DNA from: Escherichia coli
GTDB taxonomy: Bacteria; Pseudomonadota; Gammaproteobacteria; Enterobacterales; Enterobacteriaceae
Assembly (NCBI RefSeq): GCF_016026235.1
Contig: NZ_CP065613.1
DNA: 64,000 nt
Direction: 5' to 3' (one strand)
Shown here: positions 20,983-46,188 of the stretch, piece by piece
How the letters are laid out: every line of letters starts with the position of its first letter
Numbering within the stretch: position 1 is the first letter of the stretch
The notes under the pieces: model-generated
What the model saw: only the letters and a program-made list of their open reading frames with translations
What the model was told of the DNA's origin: nothing
Database searches by the model: none
Translations under genes and position numbers: made by a program

Positions 20983-22764
20983 GTGAGCGATATTGTTTAC
21001 CTGAGAATAATCGGTGAGAAGCAGGGCGATATTTCTTCAGGCTGTGGGACGTATGCGTCGGTTGGTAATCGCTGGCAGGTTGGCCATGAAGATGAAATTT
21101 TTGCCTTTGCACTCACCAACGCCATTACCAGTACTGGTAATGGCGTTAATCTACAGGGGCTACAATTTTGCAAACTCATTGATAAAAGCTCACCGCTACT
21201 GTCTAATGCCATCAATCAGAATGAGCGGTTATTTATTGAAATCGATTTGTATCGTATAAATAAAAGCGGGCGCTGGGAACGGTATTATTATATTCAGCTA
21301 AGAAATGCTTCATTAACTGCTATTCATGTAAACATTTCTGACAATAATCTTCCTACCGAATGTGTAACTGTCGATTATCACTACATATTATGTAAACATC
21401 TAATAGCCAATACGGAATTTGACTGGTTGGCCTTTCCTGCTGGCTATAATAGCTTATTTATTCCGCCTAAAAGCCCACCTGCCAGTAATCTTAAGCCTGA
21501 ACCTCTACCAGTTGTTAACCTTCCACTCTCTTCACCAGCGGTTAACCCGGTCTATGCCAAATCCTGTCTGAAGGAGAAGGGATGTACAGATGCTGGAACG
21601 GCAGAAGAACCCGCTGAAAACTTCGGTCAAGTAGCGATTTTTGCTCAGCCAGTGGTTGATGACTGCTGTGGATACCACCATCCCGAGGCTAACGATGTCG
21701 GGCAACCCGCAGAAGCTCAAACCATGCTACTGTTTCCGGGTAGTGTGTTGGCGGCTCAAATATGGGGAAAATGGTCGCTCAGTGGCATACTCAGTGCAAC
21801 CCGCGGCTCTTACATCGGTGCGTTGGCATCTGCTTTGTATATTCCCTCTGCGGGCGAGGGCAGTGCTCGCGTGCTCGGACGTGATGAGTTCTGGTATGAG
21901 GAAGAACTGCGGCAGAAAGCACTAGCAGGCAGTACCGCCACCACCCGGGTACGTTTTTTCTGGGGAACTGATATTCACGGCAAGCCTCAGGTGTATGGTG
22001 TTCATACGGGTGAAGGTACGCCGTATGAAAACGTCCGCGTGGCGAACATGCAGTGGAACGAGCAGACGCAGCGTTATGAATTTACCCCCGCTCACGATGT
22101 CGATGGCCCCCTGATTACCTGGACGCCGGAAAATCCGGAACATGGGAATGTTCCGGGCCATACCGGTAACGACAGGCCGCCGCTGGATCAGCCCACCATT
22201 CTGGTGACGCCGATTCCGGACGGTACAGATACCTATACCACGCCGCCATTCCCGGTTCCTGATCCGAAAGAATTCAACGATTATATTCTGGTTTTTCCGG
22301 CGGGATCCGGTATTAAGCCCATCTATGTTTACCTGAAGGAGGATCCGCGAAAGCTGCCTGGTGTTGTAACAGGGCGCGGCGTCCCGCTTTCATCAGGAAC
22401 TCGCTGGCTGGATATGTCGGTATCCAATAACGGCAACGGCGCGCCAATCCCGGCGCATATTGCTGATAAATTGCGCGGACGGGAGTTTAAAACCTTTGAT
22501 GAGTTTCGCGAGGCGCTGTGGCTGGAGGTGAGTCAGGATCCGGAGTTGATAGCGCAGTTTTCAAGTGGTAACCAAACACGTATAAAACAAGGATTAACCG
22601 CAAAAGCACCTATTGACGGTTGGCATTATGGCCCTAAAGAAATAGTTAAAAAATTCCAGATACATCATCGTGTTGCAATTGAATATGGCGGCAGCGTATA
22701 CGATATTGATAATTTACGAATTGTTACCCCCAGACTACACGATGAGATTCACTACAGGAGATAA
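20983..22764 (+). CDS. Hcp (T6SS tube protein) fused to a C-terminal colicin E9-type HNH DNase domain (Hcp-ET class effector)
   Basis: N-terminal ~165 aa Hcp-like (LRIIGEKQGDISSG, GHEDE, SPLLSNAI, QLRNASLTAIHV); Pro-rich linker; C-terminal ~130 aa alignable with colicin E9 DNase (GAPIPAHIADKLRGREFKTFDEFREALWLEVSQDPEL ... HHRVAIEYGGSVYDIDNLRIVTPRLHDEIH); GTG start in an AT-rich leader. Confidence 0.85.
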   Translation: MSDIVYLRIIGEKQGDISSGCGTYASVGNRWQVGHEDEIFAFALTNAITSTGNGVNLQGLQFCKLIDKSSPLLSNAINQNERLFIEIDLYRINKSGRWERYYYIQLRNASLTAIHVNISDNNLPTECVTVDYHYILCKHLIANTEFDWLAFPAGYNSLFIPPKSPPASNLKPEPLPVVNLPLSSPAVNPVYAKSCLKEKGCTDAGTAEEPAENFGQVAIFAQPVVDDCCGYHHPEANDVGQPAEAQTMLLFPGSVLAAQIWGKWSLSGILSATRGSYIGALASALYIPSAGEGSARVLGRDEFWYEEELRQKALAGSTATTRVRFFWGTDIHGKPQVYGVHTGEGTPYENVRVANMQWNEQTQRYEFTPAHDVDGPLITWTPENPEHGNVPGHTGNDRPPLDQPTILVTPIPDGTDTYTTPPFPVPDPKEFNDYILVFPAGSGIKPIYVYLKEDPRKLPGVVTGRGVPLSSGTRWLDMSVSNNGNGAPIPAHIADKLRGREFKTFDEFREALWLEVSQDPELIAQFSSGNQTRIKQGLTAKAPIDGWHYGPKEIVKKFQIHHRVAIEYGGSVYDIDNLRIVTPRLHDEIHYRR

Positions 22765-38979: not shown

Positions 38980-39656
38980 GCGGCGTTTTCCTTAATTTGA
39001 TGAACATTATTGATGCCGTAGTAATCACAAACAGTGGCATCGACGAAAGAGAGATCGTTATCAATCTCATTGGAGTCAAACATTCCCATTGGGGATTTAA
39101 CAGTGTCTGCACCGTTGTTTTTCGTGGTGAAAAAGAACTGGTCATCACGGGTAAGGGTGCGAAGAACTATAGTAAACATGCCTTCGACAGTGATTTTCTC
39201 GTCCAGCATTTTTCCTATAGTTTTCATTTTCACGCGCCCCATAGGGGTTTCTTCGGTGTGCGCAAGAAAATAGACTCTCAGGTCATCTGGCGCATCCTGT
39301 GCAGCCTTAATCACCTCCCATGCGTGGCGGCCTATCTCAGTAAATTTATCAAACGATTTTTCTTCTGAGCGGCGCATAAACTCATTGCTCATCACATACT
39401 GGAAGTCATCAACAATAACGATTCTTTTCCCGTATTCGTGAGCACGCTTAATTACGGCAACTATTACGCCCCATTTATCAGTGGTAACTACGGTTCCTTT
39501 TTTTGCTCTGGCATCCCATGCCAGCCAGTCTTTTGATTTAAATGGCAGCGGCTTGCCTATTGGTTTTATAAGTATTGCTTCCTCTGGATTGATATTTCTC
39601 ATGCTGGTTGATTTTCCGGTGCCAGATTCACCGAGTATTAATGTCGCAGTTCCCAT
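38976..39656 (-). CDS. Sak4-like RecA-fold ATPase (phage recombination/annealing protein)
   Basis: 226 aa with Walker A ILGESGTGKST and Walker B-like IVIVDDF; occupies the position of lambda exo/bet. Confidence 0.6.
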   Translation of the reverse strand: MGTATLILGESGTGKSTSMRNINPEEAILIKPIGKPLPFKSKDWLAWDARAKKGTVVTTDKWGVIVAVIKRAHEYGKRIVIVDDFQYVMSNEFMRRSEEKSFDKFTEIGRHAWEVIKAAQDAPDDLRVYFLAHTEETPMGRVKMKTIGKMLDEKITVEGMFTIVLRTLTRDDQFFFTTKNNGADTVKSPMGMFDSNEIDNDLSFVDATVCDYYGINNVHQIKENAA

Positions 39657-39664
39657 AATTTGCC

Positions 39665-39865
39665 TCAGAATGGTAATTCGGATGGGGTGGAAAGAAATTC
39701 GCGCTCATTCATGCGCTCTCTTTGCGCCTGCCATAAGCAAAGTTGTTTCTTTGATTTATCTCCCGCTTTACGCCAGTAACGAGCCTCAGCAATGTGATAC
39801 TCTCTTTTTAATCGACTTAACTCTGGGGTTTTCGCCAGTTCTACCGGAATCATTTTGACCTCCAT
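39665..39865 (-). CDS. Hypothetical small prophage protein
   Basis: 66 aa ORF. Confidence 0.35.
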   Translation of the reverse strand: MEVKMIPVELAKTPELSRLKREYHIAEARYWRKAGDKSKKQLCLWQAQRERMNEREFLSTPSELPF

Positions 39866-39948
39866 TTTTTATAAGCGTCGACGGCTTCACGAAACATCTT
39901 TTCATCGCCAATAAAAGTGGCGATAGTGAATTTAGTCTGGATAGCCAT
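39850..39948 (-). pseudogene. kil: kil remnant (host-killing FtsZ inhibitor), codons 6 onward; codons 1-5 (MDQTL) lie at 41216-41230 on the far side of the IS600-like element
   Basis: MAIQTKFTIATFIGDEKMFREAVDAYKKW... matches lambda Kil from residue 6; the ATA target duplication rejoins to give MDQTLMAIQTKF. Confidence 0.75.
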
Positions 39949-39992
39949 ATGAGGTGTACTGGCAATAGCGGACACTACCATTTGTTCTTTTT

Positions 39993-40811
39993 TTAAGCAG
40001 CCATCTGATGATATTTTTCCCTGAAGGCTGCCGGGGAGATATTCCCCAGACGAGAGTGACGACGCTGACGATTGTAGAAAATCTCAATGTATTCCCGTAT
40101 TACTGAGATGGCCTCATTCCGGCTCTTAAAACGATAGTGGCTCAGGCTCTCATTTTTCAGCGTTCCCCAGAAGCTTTCCATCGGAGCGTTGTCGTAACAG
40201 TTACCTTTACGCGACATTGATGTTTTCAGACCAGACTGCTCCTGTATGACCCGGTAATCGTATGCGCAGTACTGTGAACCTCGATCGGAGTGGTGGATTA
40301 GCCCGGCAGGTGGGCGCTGGCTCCTGAGCGCCATAAACAGGGCTTTACCTGTCAGCTCTTTTGTCATGCGCTCTCCCATGGCGTAGCCGACAATTTCGCA
40401 CGTATAAACATCTTTGATGCCAGCGAGGTACAACCATCCCTCCTGTGTGGCAACATACGTCAGGTCCGCCACCCAGACCTGATTTGGTGCTGTAGGAGCG
40501 AACGTCTGGTTCAGCAGATTTGGCGCAACTGGCAGATTGTGGTTCGAGTTCGTAGTCGCTCTGAACTTGCGTTTCTGCTTACAGCGTAGCCTTAGCTCCT
40601 TACGAAGACGTGCCAGTCGGTCACGACCAACGATGATGCCATTCTCTGCCAGCTCCGTCTGGAGCCGCCGGGTTCCATATGTTTCGCGAGTGCGGATATG
40701 TGCCACCTTAATCTCCAGTTTTAGCCGCTCATCACTTTGTTTTCTGTCTGAGGGTTCATGCTGTACCCAGTTGTAATAACCGCTCCTGGATACACCAAAT
40801 ACCCGACACAT
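39993..40811 (-). CDS. IS3-family transposase OrfB (DDE)
   Basis: 272 aa rve-domain ORF. Confidence 0.85.
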   Translation of the reverse strand: MCRVFGVSRSGYYNWVQHEPSDRKQSDERLKLEIKVAHIRTRETYGTRRLQTELAENGIIVGRDRLARLRKELRLRCKQKRKFRATTNSNHNLPVAPNLLNQTFAPTAPNQVWVADLTYVATQEGWLYLAGIKDVYTCEIVGYAMGERMTKELTGKALFMALRSQRPPAGLIHHSDRGSQYCAYDYRVIQEQSGLKTSMSRKGNCYDNAPMESFWGTLKNESLSHYRFKSRNEAISVIREYIEIFYNRQRRHSRLGNISPAAFREKYHQMAA

Positions 40812-40846
40812 CGCTTCAATGGGAAATTGTTGTCGCCATTGTTCGA

Positions 40847-41149
40847 TTAACGCGTATTTTTCAGCGACTCCTGTGCAAAATACGCTGTTGCTTTTTTTAA
40901 TATATCTCGCTCAAGGCGAGCTTCATTTAACGCCTTACGCAGTTGCAGAATTTCAGATTCCAGTTCAGCCACCGTGCGGGAACCAGGAGTACCGAGCCCT
41001 TTTCTGGCGGCGGTAACCCATTGTCCTAAAGTGCCTTCAGGAAGGGATAATCGGGAAGCGCCTTCACTGATCGAAAGTTGATTTTCAAGAACCGTTCTGA
41101 CAGCTTCGGCTTTGAACTCTTTAGAGTAACGTTGGGTTTTTCTGCTCAT
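40847..41149 (-). CDS. IS3-family transposase OrfA (HTH)
   Basis: 100 aa MSRKTQRYSKEFKAEAVRTVLENQLSISEGASRL... Confidence 0.85.
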   Translation of the reverse strand: MSRKTQRYSKEFKAEAVRTVLENQLSISEGASRLSLPEGTLGQWVTAARKGLGTPGSRTVAELESEILQLRKALNEARLERDILKKATAYFAQESLKNTR

Positions 41150-41210
41150 TATTAGCTCCTTCTGATGCCATTCTATTTCAGGAAGGAGTGTCCGTTAAAC
41201 TCAGGCTACC

Positions 41211-41363
41211 TCAATAAGTGTTTGATCCATTCTTTGGGACTCCTGGCTGATTAAGTATGTCGATAAGGCGTTTCCATCCGTCACGTAATTTACGGGTGAT
41301 TCGTTCAAGTAAAGATTCGGAAGGGCAGCCAGCAACAGGCCACCCTGCAATGGCATATTGCAT
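41211..41363 (-). CDS. cIII: cIII (FtsH inhibitor), last 4 codons replaced by a stop inside the IS inverted repeat
   Basis: MQYAIAGWPVAGCPSESLLERITRKLRDGWKRLIDILNQPGVPKNGSNTY-stop; lambda cIII continues GYPD. Confidence 0.8.
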   Translation of the reverse strand: MQYAIAGWPVAGCPSESLLERITRKLRDGWKRLIDILNQPGVPKNGSNTY

Positions 41364-41462
41364 GGTGTGCTCCTTATTTACGCTTTAAATTGCTCCGTGT
41401 ATTCACTCGTTGGAATGAATACACAGTGCAGTGTTTATTCTGTTGTTTATGCCAAAATAATT

Positions 41463-41705
41463 TTAATCAGCAATAAACTCTTCTGGTAATTTATCAACTA
41501 TTTGATGACTTATTATCAGCCATTTGCCATCCTTCGTTTCGTATGCATATTTCTGGTCTTTTATCATCATGTGTTCAGCTACTGCCTTAACTGCCTGTTC
41601 GGTTACATCTTCTTTCTTTCCCACCCACATTCCTTTTTCAGTGTTTAATGTTCCTTGAAAAATACGACCACTTAATGGGCTTGCGCCCATAGTTTTTACT
41701 CTCAT
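41463..41705 (-). CDS. Hypothetical early-left protein between N and cIII
   Basis: 80 aa ORF. Confidence 0.4.
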   Translation of the reverse strand: MRVKTMGASPLSGRIFQGTLNTEKGMWVGKKEDVTEQAVKAVAEHMMIKDQKYAYETKDGKWLIISHQIVDKLPEEFIAD

Positions 41706-41715
41706 GTATCAGTCC

Positions 41716-42042
41716 TCAAATAAGTGGTTTGCTGCCTAATTTCATTTTCTGGCGACCAACACAAGTCACACCCATTTCACTGCGTGGCTTGCTGTACCAT
41801 GTGCGCTGATTCTTGCGCTCAATACGTTGCAGGTTGCTTTCAATCTGTTCGTGGTATTCAGCCAGCACTGTAAGGTCTATCGGATTCAGCGCGCTTTCTA
41901 CTCGTGATTTCGGTTTGCGATTCAGCGAGAGAATAGGGCGGTTAACTGGTTTTGCGCTTACCCCAACCAACAGGGGATTTGCTGCTTTCCATTGAGCCTG
42001 TTTCTCTGCGCGACGTTCGCGGCGGCGTGTTTGTGCATCCAT
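41716..42042 (-). CDS. N: Antitermination protein N (lambda-type)
   Basis: 107 aa MDAQTRRRERRAEKQAQWKAANPLLVGVSAKPVNRPILSL... with arginine-rich motif; the ORF track adds 30 upstream codons. Confidence 0.9.
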   Translation of the reverse strand: MDAQTRRRERRAEKQAQWKAANPLLVGVSAKPVNRPILSLNRKPKSRVESALNPIDLTVLAEYHEQIESNLQRIERKNQRTWYSKPRSEMGVTCVGRQKMKLGSKPLI

Positions 42043-42152
42043 CTGGATTCTCCTGTCAGTTAGCTTTGAGTAACGCGCCGTGATGCTTATCTCCACGGTT
42101 GCTGTCTTGCAGCTGCATTTCGCGCTACTCAAAGCTTTCTGCTTTGAATGCT

Positions 42153-42184
42153 GCCCTTCTTCAGGGCTTAATTTTTAAGAGCAT
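42153..42184 (-). promoter_or_regulatory. nutL (boxB hairpin GCCCTGAAGAAGGGC plus adjacent boxA-like element)
   Basis: On the bottom strand ...gctcttaaaaattaagccctgaagaagggcagc... upstream of N. Confidence 0.75.
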
Positions 42185-42342
42185 CACCTTCAATGGTGGT
42201 CAGTGCGTCCTGCTGATGGCTAAATAGTACGATTTGTACTTTATCGAGTCAATACAAAATGTTCTAAATATAATTAGTTTCTTATAACGCTTTGTATTTA
42301 ATGGGTTTATATTTTGGAAAAAGAAAACCCGACACTAAGGTC

Positions 42343-43768
42343 TAATGCCGATCAGTTAAGGATCAGTTGACCGATCCAGTGGCTGTGTAAGAATCCGGAA
42401 ACGCTCACTTGTTTCCGGATTTTTTTATGCACATTGGACAGGCTCTTGATCTGGTATCCCGTTACGATTCTCTGCGTAACCCACTGACTTCTCTGGGGGA
42501 TTACCTCGACCCCGAACTCATCTCTCGTTGCCTTGCCGAATCAGGTACTGTAACGCTACGCAAGCGCCGTCTTCCCCTCGAAATGATGGTCTGGTGTATT
42601 GTTGGCATGGCGCTTGAGCGTAAAGAACCTCTTCACCAGATTGTGAATCGCCTGGACATCATGCTGCCGGGCAATCGCCCCTTCGTTGCCCCCAGTGCCG
42701 TTATTCAGGCCCGCCAGCGCCTGGGAAGTGAGGCTGTCCGCCGCGTGTTCACGAAAACAGCGCAGCTCTGGCATAACGCCACGCCGCATCCGCACTGGTG
42801 CGGCCTGACCCTGCTGGCCATCGATGGTGTGTTCTGGCGCACACCGGATACACCAGAGAACGATGCAGCCTTCCCCCGCCAGACACATGCCGGGAACCCG
42901 GCGCTCTACCCGCAGGTCAAAATGGTCTGCCAGATGGAACTGACCAGCCATCTGCTGACGGCTGCAGCCTTCGGCACGATGAAGAACAGCGAAAATGAGC
43001 TTGCTGAGCAACTTATAGAACAAACCGGCGATAACACTCTGACGTTAATGGATAAAGGTTATTACTCACTGGGACTGTTAAATGCCTGGAGCCTGGCGGG
43101 AGAACACCGCCACTGGATGATACCTCTCAGAAAGGGAGCGCAATATGAAGAGCTCAGAAAACTGGGTAAAGGCGATCATCTGGTGAAGCTGAAAACCAGC
43201 CCGCAGGCACGAAAAAAGTGGCCGGGACTGGGAAATGAAGTGACAGCCCGCCTGCTGACCGTGACGCGCAAAGGAAAAGTCTGCCATCTGCTGACGTCGA
43301 TGACGGACGCCATGCGCTTCCCCGGAGGAGAAATGGCGGATCTGTACAGTCATCGCTGGGAAATCGAACTGGGATACAGGGAGATAAAACAGACGATGCA
43401 ACTGAGCAGGCTGACGCTGAGAAGTAAAAAGCCGGAGCTTGTGGAGCAAGAGCTGTGGGGTGTCTTACTGGCTTATAATCTGGTGAGATATCAGATGATT
43501 AAAATGGCGGAACATCTGAAAGGTTACTGGCCGAATCAACTGAGTTTCTCAGAATCATGCGGAATGGTGATGAGAATGCTGATGACATTGCAGGGCGCTT
43601 CACCGGGACGTATACCGGAGCTGATGCGCGATCTTGCAAGTATGGGACAACTTGTGAAATTACCGACGAGAAGGGGAAGGGCCTTCCCGAGAGTGGTAAA
43701 GGAGAGGCCCTGGAAATACCCCACAGCCCCGAAAAAGAGCCAGTCAGTTGCTTAACTGACTGGCATTA
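42343..43768 (+). mobile_element. IS4 (1426 bp) with 12-bp target duplication gacactaaggtc
   Basis: Terminal inverted repeats taatgccgatcagttaagga.../...ttaactgactggcatta; identical 12-mer at 42331-42342 and 43769-43780. Confidence 0.88.
42409..43755 (+). CDS. IS4 transposase
   Basis: 448 aa DDE transposase ORF filling the element. Confidence 0.88.
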
Positions 43769-43815
43769 GACACTAAGGTCGGGTTATTGTTGTGTGCTTT
43801 AGAGTAGTGAGGCTG

Positions 43816-44550
43816 TTAACTAAATGTCTCTTCAGGCCACTGGCTGGCGATAACTTTCCCCACAACGGAACAACTCTCATTGCATGGGATCATTGGGTAT
43901 TGTGGGTTTAGTGGCTGTAGAAACACCTGACCACTATCCCTGATCAGTTTCTTGAAAGTAAATTCATCACCACCAAGTCTGGCTATGCAGAAATCGCCGG
44001 GCTCAACAGCTTGCTCAGGGTCAACCAGAATTAACATCCCGTCAGGAAAACTGGGTTTGGAACCTGTTGGTGCGGTCATGGAATTACCTTCAACTTCAAG
44101 CCAAAACGCACAATCACTGGCTTTTTTGGTTGTGCTGACCCATCTCTCCGCATCACCTTTGGTAAAGGTTCTAAGCTCAGGCGAGAACATCCCGGCCTGA
44201 ACATGAGAAAAAACAGGGTACTCATATTGTTTTTTAACGGGGGCAGATGAGTATTCGCCAACAGGTGAAAATGTACCGTCGTGGTTGAATGAGACGTTAT
44301 CAATACCAAGGTATTTAAACACCACACCAATCTCGTCAAGAGATGGATGACGAGATCCGCGCAACCAGTGACCAATTCCACCCTGCGTCATACCAAGCTC
44401 TTCAGCTAACTTCTCTTGAGTTATGCCGAGCTCTTTCATTCTGGATCTAGCCAGTTCATACCATTTCATTTTCATATCCTTATTATTACGCTCTGTACTA
44501 AAACCATCCATGCACAAGATGTATTTTTTGTTTGCATTCCAAAAGTACAT
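43816..44550 (-). CDS. cI: CI-type prophage repressor (HTH_XRE N-domain plus S24 LexA-like C-domain)
   Basis: 244 aa; C-terminal half matches lambda cI ([34 protein letters not shown] ... [10 protein letters not shown]) while the N-terminal DNA-binding domain is unrelated to lambda cI. Confidence 0.85.
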
Positions 44551-44586
44551 ATCGTATTATTGTCTCATGGTTACTATGGAGGGCAT

Positions 44587-44802
44587 ATGAGCAACCTACG
44601 AAAATATCGAGAGTCACTGAATATCTCTCAAACAACACTTGCTAAGGCGGTTGGATGCACACAGGGAGCTATTGGGCATTGGGAATCTGGTCGTCGCTTC
44701 CCAGACCTTAAAACATGCCGCGCTCTTGTTGCATGCCTAAACAAGTTAGGCGCAAAAGTCAGTCTTGATGACGTGTTCCCTCCGGAACACAAAGCCGCTT
44801 AA
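44587..44802 (+). CDS. cro: Cro-like HTH repressor (non-lambda)
   Basis: 71 aa MSNLRKYRESLNISQTTLAKAVGCTQGAIGHWESGRR..., divergent from cI across a ~36 bp operator region. Confidence 0.75.
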   Translation: MSNLRKYRESLNISQTTLAKAVGCTQGAIGHWESGRRFPDLKTCRALVACLNKLGAKVSLDDVFPPEHKAA

Positions 44803-44921
44803 GACATTCCAGCTCTTACACATTCCAGCCCTGAAAAAGGGCATCCAATTAAACCACACCTATGGTGTATGCATTTATTTGCATACATTCAATCAATTGT
44901 TGTCTAAGGAAATACTTACAT

Positions 44922-45290
44922 ATGGTTCGTGCAAACAAACGCAACGAGGCTCTACGAATCGAGAGTGCGTTGCTTAACAAAATCGCAATGCTTGGAACTG
45001 AGAAGACAGCGGAAGCTGTGGGAGTTGATAAGTCGCAGATCAGCAGGTGGAAGAGGGACTGGATTCCAAAGTTCTCAATGCTGCTTGCTGTTCTTGAATG
45101 GGGCGTCGTTGACGACGATATGGCTCGATTGGCACGACAAGTTGCTTCGATTCTCACCAATAAAAACGCCCGGTGTGGCAAACCGAGCGTTCTGAACAAA
45201 TCCAGATGGAGTTCTGAGGTCATTACTGGATCTATCAACAGGAGTCATTATGACAAATACAGCAAAAATACTCAACTTCGGCAGAGGTAA
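44922..45290 (+). CDS. cII: cII transcriptional activator, C-terminus divergent from lambda (possible frameshift)
   Basis: Residues 1-80 match lambda cII (MVRANKRNEALRIESALLNKIAMLGTEKTAEAVGVDKSQISRWKRDW...); the lambda C-terminal EQIQMEF is encoded in another frame. Confidence 0.7.
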   Translation: MVRANKRNEALRIESALLNKIAMLGTEKTAEAVGVDKSQISRWKRDWIPKFSMLLAVLEWGVVDDDMARLARQVASILTNKNARCGKPSVLNKSRWSSEVITGSINRSHYDKYSKNTQLRQR

Positions 45291-46188
45291 CTTTGCCGGA
45301 CAGGAGCGTAATGTGGCAGATCTCGATGATGGTTACGCCAGATTATCAAATATGCTGCTTGAGGCTTATTCAGGCGCAGATCTGACCAAGCGACAGTTTA
45401 AAGTGCTGCTTGCCATTCTGCGTAAAACCTATGGGTGGAATAAACCAATGGACAGAATCACTGATTCTCAACTTAGCGAGTTGACAAAGTTACCTGTCAA
45501 ACGATGCAATGAAGCCAAGTTAGAACTCGTCAGAATGAATATTATCAAGCAGCAAGGCGGCATGTTTGGACCAAACAAAAACATCTCAGAATGGTGTATC
45601 CCTCAAAACGAGGGGGGTTCCCCTAAAATGAGGGATATCCCTCAAAACGAGGGAAAATCCCCTAAAACGAGGGATAAAACATCCCTCAAATTGGGGGATT
45701 GCTATCCCTCAAAACAGGGGGACACAAAAGACACTATTACAAAAGAAAAAAGAAAAGATTATTCGTCCGAGAATTCTGGCGAATCCTCTGACCAGCCAGA
45801 AAACGATCTTTCTGTGGTTAAACCGGATGCTGCAATTCAGAGCGGCAGCAAGTGGGGAACAGCAGAAGACCTGACCGCCGCAGAGTGGATGTTTGACATG
45901 GTGAAGACTATCGCGCCATCAGCCAGAAAACCGAATTTTGCTGGGTGGGCTAACGATATCCGCCTGATGCGTGAACGTGACGGACGTAACCACCGCGATA
46001 TGTGTGTGCTTTTCCGCTGGGCCTGCCAGGACAACTTCTGGTCCGGTAACGTGCTAAGTCCGGCCAAACTCCGCGACAAGTGGACCCAGCTCGAAATCAA
46101 CCGTAACAAGCAACAGGCAGGCGTGACAGCCAGCAAACCAAAACTCGACCTGACAAACACTGACTGGATTTACGGGGTGGATTTATGA
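45250..46188 (+). CDS. O: Replication initiator O (lambda-type)
   Basis: 312 aa, matches lambda O with a 13-aa insertion in the iteron-encoded segment. Confidence 0.9.
   Translation: MTNTAKILNFGRGNFAGQERNVADLDDGYARLSNMLLEAYSGADLTKRQFKVLLAILRKTYGWNKPMDRITDSQLSELTKLPVKRCNEAKLELVRMNIIKQQGGMFGPNKNISEWCIPQNEGGSPKMRDIPQNEGKSPKTRDKTSLKLGDCYPSKQGDTKDTITKEKRKDYSSENSGESSDQPENDLSVVKPDAAIQSGSKWGTAEDLTAAEWMFDMVKTIAPSARKPNFAGWANDIRLMRERDGRNHRDMCVLFRWACQDNFWSGNVLSPAKLRDKWTQLEINRNKQQAGVTASKPKLDLTNTDWIYGVDL
45598..45765 (+). promoter_or_regulatory. ori-lambda: six iteron-like 18-19 bp repeats plus AT-rich region, inside O
   Basis: atccctcaaaacgagggg / ttcccctaaaatgaggga / atccctcaaaacgaggga / atcccctaaaacgaggga / atccctcaaattggggga / atccctcaaaacaggggga then A-rich tract. 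Confidence 0.8.

Follow-up and report, generated by a model that had tools for sequence, protein, structure and literature searches.

In phage lambda, the interval between the repressor gene cI and the OL/pL region carries rexA/rexB. In the prophage described here, this interval holds a copy of the insertion sequence IS4, which raises the question of what the insertion has replaced or changed. A preliminary description of the locus placed the element where lambda carries rexA/rexB, and suggested that it may alter the OL/pL architecture and could mark the loss of a rex-like exclusion module. The placement is confirmed, IS4 lying between cI and OL/pL, and so are the distances given with it (47 bp from the cI stop and ~300 bp upstream of the N start). 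Between the end of IS4 and the cI stop codon (43816-43818) there are 47 nt (43769-43815); on the other side, the N start codon (42040-42042) is 300 nt (42043-42342) away from the element. All positions refer to the window, i.e., the whole 64-kb stretch of DNA (64,000 nucleotides) that was analyzed, and the features discussed are collected in Table 1.

The prophage is lambda-like, with N, nutL, nutR, cIII, xis, and the C-terminal domain of cI being of the lambda type, while the N-terminal domain of the repressor, the operators, and cro are not those of lambda. The C-terminal 405 nt of cI are 93.6% identical to lambda cI (J02459 37233-37637), whereas the N-terminal DNA-binding domain, the operators, and cro gave no lambda match (window 43816-44802). 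The repressor is a mosaic, which implies that a different immunity specificity is carried on a lambda-like oligomerisation/cleavage domain.

Table 1. Positions of IS4, its target site, and the surrounding immunity-region features in the window (a dot marks features without strand).
Feature	Position	Strand	Details and basis
Antiterminator N, lambda type	41716-42042	-	94% nucleotide identity to lambda
nutL boxB	42153-42167	-	Minus-strand sequence GCCCTGAAGAAGGGC; lambda 35496-35583, including the annotated NutL, is 96.6% identical
Candidate pL	42224-42252	-	-35 TTGACT (42247-42252), 17-nt spacer, -10 TACTAT (42224-42229); consensus scan only
OL1-like site	42227-42241	.	Putative assignment
OL2-like site	42251-42265	.	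Putative assignment
OL3-like site	42286-42300	.	Putative assignment
Split T_IMM-like terminator, downstream half	42316-42342	-	3' stem arm (+ strand AACCCGAC) and U-run (reverse complement of GGAAAAAGAAAA); fold, lambda homology
Target site duplication, left copy	42331-42342	.	GACACTAAGGTC; repeat comparison
IS4 left terminal inverted repeat (IRL)	42343-42360	+	16/18 against the reverse complement of the right end
IS4-internal hairpin	42392-42426	+	AATCCGGAAAC...GTTTCCGGATT, then T7, just 5' of the transposase ATG; ViennaRNA fold
IS4 transposase ORF	42409-43755	+	Single, uninterrupted; 448 aa from TTG, 442 aa from ATG at 42427
IS4 right-end hairpin	43729-43764	-	GCCAGTCAGTT-AAGC-AACTGACTGGC, 11 bp, then TCTTTTT; terminator scan, fold
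IS4 right terminal inverted repeat (IRR)	43751-43768	-	Pairs with IRL
Target site duplication, right copy	43769-43780	.	GACACTAAGGTC; repeat comparison
Split T_IMM-like terminator, upstream half	43781-43788	-	GGGTTATT on the + strand; fold
cI-type repressor	43816-44511	-	231 aa as annotated in relatives; Pfam HTH_3 and Peptidase_S24 (HTH and LexA/S24 autocleavage)
OR site related to OL	44487-44501	.	Putative assignment
OR site related to OL	44511-44525	.	Putative assignment
OR1	44544-44558	.	Related to OL; 17-mer matched to OL1 at 44542-44558; putative assignment

IS4 and its target duplication

IS4 of Escherichia coli is the type element of the IS4 family and is known as insG in K-12. The window contains a complete copy on the + strand (42343-43768) of exactly 1426 bp, which starts with TAATGCCGATCAGTTAAG, ends in the reverse complement of TAATGCCAGTCAGTTAAG, and is bounded by 18-bp terminal inverted repeats. 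Over the full 1426 bp it is 100% identical to copies annotated as 'IS4-like element IS4 family transposase' (e.g., in NZ_CP011416.1). The transposase scores 303.7 bits against NCBIfam NF033592 (IS4 transposase, cutoff 115) and shows the Pfam domains Nterm_IS4 and DDE_Tnp_1, and a protein identical to it is found in 228 blocks of the collection. Both the ORF and the ends of the copy are intact, so the earlier account of a 1426-bp IS4 with an intact transposase is correct. The element has the length, the ends, the DDE ORF, and the near-identity to annotated copies that characterize IS4, together with a duplication in the 11-13 bp range and A-tract/T-tract arms. It is also common in the species: at least 80% of IS4 is covered at one place in 2479 of 5426 E. 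coli complete genomes, and 1790 records have at least 99% identity to it.

IS4 is flanked by a perfect 12-bp direct repeat, GACACTAAGGTC, that does not extend on either side and is absent elsewhere in the 64-kb window. The odds of finding an exact 12-mer at both ends of the element by chance are ~6e-8. The range given in the preliminary description, 42343-43780, comprises IS4 and the right copy of the repeat, the left copy beginning at 42331.

To compare the locus with IS-free relatives, an empty site was built in silico from 600 bp of left flank, one copy of the repeat, and 600 bp of right flank. This site is covered to at least 80% at one place in 126 E. coli complete genomes, and in all 40 matches listed of these 126 it is matched end to end, in one piece, with ~97-98% identity. 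The genes annotated under the matches are 'antitermination protein N' and 'LexA family protein'. Phage Dewey likewise contains the empty site in one uninterrupted piece, with about 97% identity. In the five IS-free relatives that were aligned (L001, L002, L008, L009, and L010), the sequence GAC[A/G]CTAAGGTC occurs once and the flanks are continuous. Because the 12-mer is single in these five relatives, the repeat is a true target site duplication, as had been proposed, and the uninterrupted site in the 126 genomes and Dewey favors the same reading. Both copies of the repeat are intact, so that there was no adjacent deletion, and the insertion was precise, with nothing deleted. The alternative that the 12-bp repeat belongs to the phage itself, or that the element is one other than IS4, is refuted and retains practically no probability, since the 12-mer is single-copy in 5/5 IS-free relatives inspected, its length falls within the 11-13 bp seen at the other IS4 sites compared, the element is indistinguishable from annotated IS4, and nothing was found in favor of this alternative.

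The occupied site, with IS4 at this position, is present in 0 of the 5426 E. coli complete genomes. No IS-free copy of the same prophage lineage was found among these genomes either, the nearest IS-free sequences being the ~97-98% identical ones mentioned above. An exact look-up of the cI protein returned only three short draft contigs, and the two that were inspected, both from NCBI draft assemblies, end at or inside IS4. Contig L012 stops 3 bases before the IS4 end and has 0 mismatches over 3398 bp, and contig L011 stops 98 bp inside IS4 and has 3 mismatches over 4841 bp. Both apparently belong to the same lineage, and the insertion would explain why short-read assemblies of this lineage break exactly at this locus.

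The predicted terminator at the insertion site

IS4 went into a hairpin, AAAACCCGAC-ACTAAG-GTCGGGTT, and its target comprises the loop and the upper part of the stem. Read on the minus strand, that of cI, the reconstructed site is AAUAACCCGAC-CUUAGU-GUCGGGUUUUCUUUUUCC, with an 8-bp G+C-rich stem, a 6-nt loop, and a U-run. The reconstructed hairpin, which is followed by UUCUUUUU, has a folding energy of -12.1 kcal/mol with z = -3.37 relative to shuffled sequences (ViennaRNA). Coming from cI, it follows the stop codon after 33 nt and is itself followed, 30 nt further on, by the OL3-like site. Its counterpart in lambda (GAAAACCCGGCGCTGAGGCCGGGTTATTCTTG, J02459 35803-35826) lies directly after rexB. 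The two sequences are identical at 27 of 32 positions including flanks, and their stems differ by a compensatory G-C to A-T change. In lambda, T_IMM is the intrinsic terminator immediately downstream of rexB, at the end of the PRM transcripts (bioRxiv 10.1101/2021.04.19.439022). With a predicted leftward terminator between the last immunity gene and OL, and with homology to lambda, the hairpin split by IS4 is the homologue of T_IMM, predicted to close the cI operon. The preliminary description had noticed neither this homologue as the target nor the match of the site to the target pattern of IS4.

An older target rule for IS4, AAA-N20-TTT, was reportedly formulated by Mayaux et al. in 1984 and is said to go back also to Klaer. 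We compared 21 distinct IS4 sites, this one included, of which 12 come from E. coli complete genomes and 9 were obtained through an exact-protein look-up that is blind to the flanks. Part of this sample was ranked by similarity to the present locus and is therefore biased; the unbiased subset consists of the 9 sites, 8 of them from one genome. The 21 sites follow the pattern AAAA-SSS-[11-13 bp]-SSS-TTTT, with duplications of 11, 12, or 13 bp. Left of the duplication, A is found at positions -7 to -4 in 13-21 of the 21 sites (18-21 for positions -7 to -5); right of it, T is found at positions +4 to +8 in 15-20 of them, and the three positions adjoining it on either side (-3 to -1 and +1 to +3) are predominantly G or C. 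AAA and TTT flank the duplication at a distance of no more than 8 nt at 15/21 sites, compared to 0.9% of random window positions, and the A-tract and T-tract pattern is present in 9/9 of the sites sampled blind to flanks. The site in the window, AAAAccc[GACACTAAGGTC]gggTTATT, fits this pattern, with the slight departure that the right arm is TTATT and not TTTTT. Many of the compared sites are terminator hairpins just 3' of genes (dacB/obg, rplI, rpoD, adhE, mukB, aroA, typA), and several are located within genes and are non-palindromic. For the IS4 subgroup, target duplications of 10-13 bp have been described (PMC2266710), and De Palmenaer et al. is cited for the target pattern.

A single 5.19-Mb genome (GCA_016026215.1, CP065611.1; L022-L030) carries at least 9 IS4 copies whose transposase is identical to that of the window. 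Most of these are in terminator-like palindromes 3' of genes, e.g., adhE, mukB, aroA, and typA.

On the preferred reading, the site was picked by IS4's own preference for an A-tract and a T-tract ~18-20 bp apart with G+C-rich arms. Many intrinsic terminators have this shape. Since the pattern coincides with that of intrinsic terminators, IS4 tends to land just after genes, including phage repressor operons. As the position can be explained by the target preference, selection on a phage function does not need to be invoked. We consider it very probable that a complete IS4 transposed into the T_IMM homologue at the end of the cI operon in a lambda-like prophage. The element would have moved by the normal cut-and-paste route, and the insertion duplicated 12 bp of the hairpin loop and upper stem.

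Termination, operators, and immunity

The first consequence to consider concerns the end of the cI transcript. The insertion abolishes the native hairpin at the cI-proximal junction, where only -1.4 kcal/mol remains. However, transcription on the cI strand would meet another hairpin in the initial 40 nt of IS4, which as RNA reads GCCAGUCAGUU-AAGC-AACUGACUGGC followed by UCUUUUU and has an energy of -18.7 kcal/mol with z = -3.56. According to the fold, this hairpin and its U-run probably take over the termination of the cI transcript, and the replacement terminator in the right end of IS4 would be located ~20 nt further along it. The hairpin and T7 at the left end of IS4 are predicted to shield the transposase gene from transcripts arriving from the left flank. 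In the region 39000-46000, an Rfam scan gave no match in or next to IS4, and its only two matches were the lambda cIII thermoregulator and a snoRNA, the latter by chance.

The preliminary description had also suggested that the insertion may alter the OL/pL architecture, and had proposed mapping the operators relative to the IS end. This suggestion is not supported. The candidate pL and the three OL-like sites are all to the left of the duplication, with the closest OL-like site at least 30 bp away from it, and all of them are intact and conserved in the IS-free relatives. Homology to lambda runs up to 42218, near the candidate pL, and both nutL boxB and N are intact. OL1 and OR1 match at 15/17 positions and OL3 and OR3 at 14/17, while the remaining operator-like sites match the OL1 17-mer seed more weakly (10-12/17).

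Two small differences were seen in the vicinity. The nutL boxA (42176-42183, minus strand) is TGCTCTTA in the window and CGCTCTTA or GGCTCTTA in the IS-free relatives, and an extra A at ~42205 is present in the window and in L001 relative to the other four relatives aligned.

As the IS4-end hairpin likely ends the cI transcripts and OL/pL are untouched, the insertion is expected to be nearly neutral for immunity. The physical change that would remain is the distance between OL and OR, which goes from ~0.88 to ~2.32 kb. That the physical change lies in the terminator and in this distance, and not in the operators, had been missed in the preliminary description.

The prophage itself is decaying by insertion sequences, namely IS4 and IS600, in addition to a split int gene. 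The IS600-like (IS3-family) element (39950-41213) is complete (1264 bp); its 27-nt inverted repeats are imperfect, and the trinucleotide ATA is duplicated on either side of it (39947-39949 and 41214-41216). It lies near the 3' end of a lambda-type cIII (41211-41363, minus strand), which has lost its last four codons (GYPD) to the far side of the element. Upstream of the truncated cIII coding sequence, the lambda cIII thermoregulator (Rfam RF01804; 41318-41376, minus strand) is intact and scores 88.5 bits, the gathering score being 50. The lambda-type int (32877-33946, minus strand) is split into the overlapping ORFs 33551-33946 and 32877-33569 and looks like a frameshift pseudogene, while xis (33924-34142) is intact. 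Excision of the prophage has probably become impossible.

At its left end (32740-32880; P' arm, lambda-like from ~32812), the prophage meets a truncated yacH-like ORF (32103-32789) by lpd, the junction being at the core-like sequence ATTCTTATCAGTAAGTTGAC. This junction is present in 0 of the 5426 E. coli complete genomes and could be the result of secondary-site integration or of a rearrangement. Elsewhere in the window, a 593-aa ORF (20983-22764, + strand) encodes both an Hcp (TssD) domain and an antibacterial T6SS DNase effector domain, and is located in ~4.4 kb of extra DNA between aroP-like and pdhR-like ORFs.

An alternative reading is that the insertion matters for the immunity switch and changes the stability of the lysogen. 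Three routes can be envisaged: read-through from PRM/PRE to pL/N, antisense transposase RNA running into cI, and a weakening of looping by the 1.44-kb wider OL-OR interval. The loss of the native hairpin at the cI-proximal junction speaks for such an effect, and the stronger hairpin and U-run in the first 40 nt of IS4 speak against it. A second, weaker hybrid hairpin followed by the native U-run at the far junction points in the same direction; considered as a second terminator in its own right, however, this left-junction hybrid folds no better than shuffled sequence (z = -0.95) and was discarded. Also in favor of an effect, the right end of IS4 has no U-run after the hairpin on the + strand, and the OL1-OR1 spacing increases from ~879 to 2317 bp; lambda, however, works with OL1 and OR1 2407 bp apart. 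Furthermore, with int split and IS600 in cIII the prophage is already defective, making selection on fine regulation doubtful. Taken together, we regard a functional effect on the switch as unlikely, and retain the nearly neutral insertion into the T_IMM homologue as the preferred reading.

A more general idea can be put forward tentatively, and we hold it to be possible rather than probable: IS4 could be a 'terminator-swapping' element, which homes to terminator-shaped sites, carries inward-blocking hairpin/U-runs at both ends, replaces the terminator that it destroys, and would thus be near-neutral. If so, the end of the cI operon would be preserved here, and the resetting of the OL-OR distance from ~0.9 kb to a lambda-like 2.3 kb could measurably change looping.

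The rex slot and comparison with known systems

The remaining alternative is that a rex-like exclusion module between cI and OL was lost together with the arrival of IS4 or through it, as had been suggested in the preliminary description. Lambda has rexA/rexB in this very interval, and phage phi458 (L007, 2111-3157), which shares the OL and terminator flank, carries a 348-aa ORF (Orf11) between cI and a lambda-type T_IMM hairpin, so the slot is sometimes occupied in this immunity group. A PADLOC search of Orf11 gave no match, and the gene is a candidate for a cargo or exclusion gene. Against a loss caused by IS4, an IS-mediated adjacent deletion would remove one copy of the repeat and some flank, whereas here both 12-bp copies are intact and the removal of IS4 recreates the contiguous sequence of the 126 genomes and Dewey. 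In addition, the distance from the cI stop to the hairpin is 33 nt both here and in the five IS-free relatives inspected, which leaves no rex-like module in the interval. As the terminator follows the cI stop after no more than 33 nt in the lineage, IS4 replaced no such module, and the slot was empty in advance of the insertion. A loss of a rex-like module with or through IS4 is thus very improbable.

The gene order in lambda is OL - T_IMM - rexB - rexA - cI, while that in this prophage is OL - T_IMM - 33 nt - cI. The T_IMM homologue has the same place relative to OL as in lambda, the same hairpin, and the U-run on the leftward strand; the difference is that T_IMM follows rexB in lambda, whereas its homologue here follows cI directly and is now split by IS4. 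The rexA/rexB module occupies the same cI-OL interval, and no such genes are present there in this prophage or in the IS-free relatives. Unlike the rexA/rexB cargo, IS4 sits at the OL-proximal edge of this slot, in the terminator, and replaces no gene. For annotation, the cI-OL interval of this prophage should accordingly be read as IS4 and not as an exclusion or defence module, with the repressor, the operators, and pL intact.

Compared to palindrome- or terminator-seeking insertion sequences, such as the REP-targeting ones (PMC1525189), IS4 similarly enters short G+C-rich intergenic palindromes 3' of genes; the distinction is that IS4 follows an A-tract/T-tract pair at fixed spacing, whereas the REP-targeting elements follow a specific repeat family. 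Relative to the known IS4 of E. coli, the present copy shows no difference in length, ends, transposase ORF, duplication size, or target arms, and its location alone is new. This is an ordinary insertion of a known insertion sequence, following a known target preference, in a degraded prophage.
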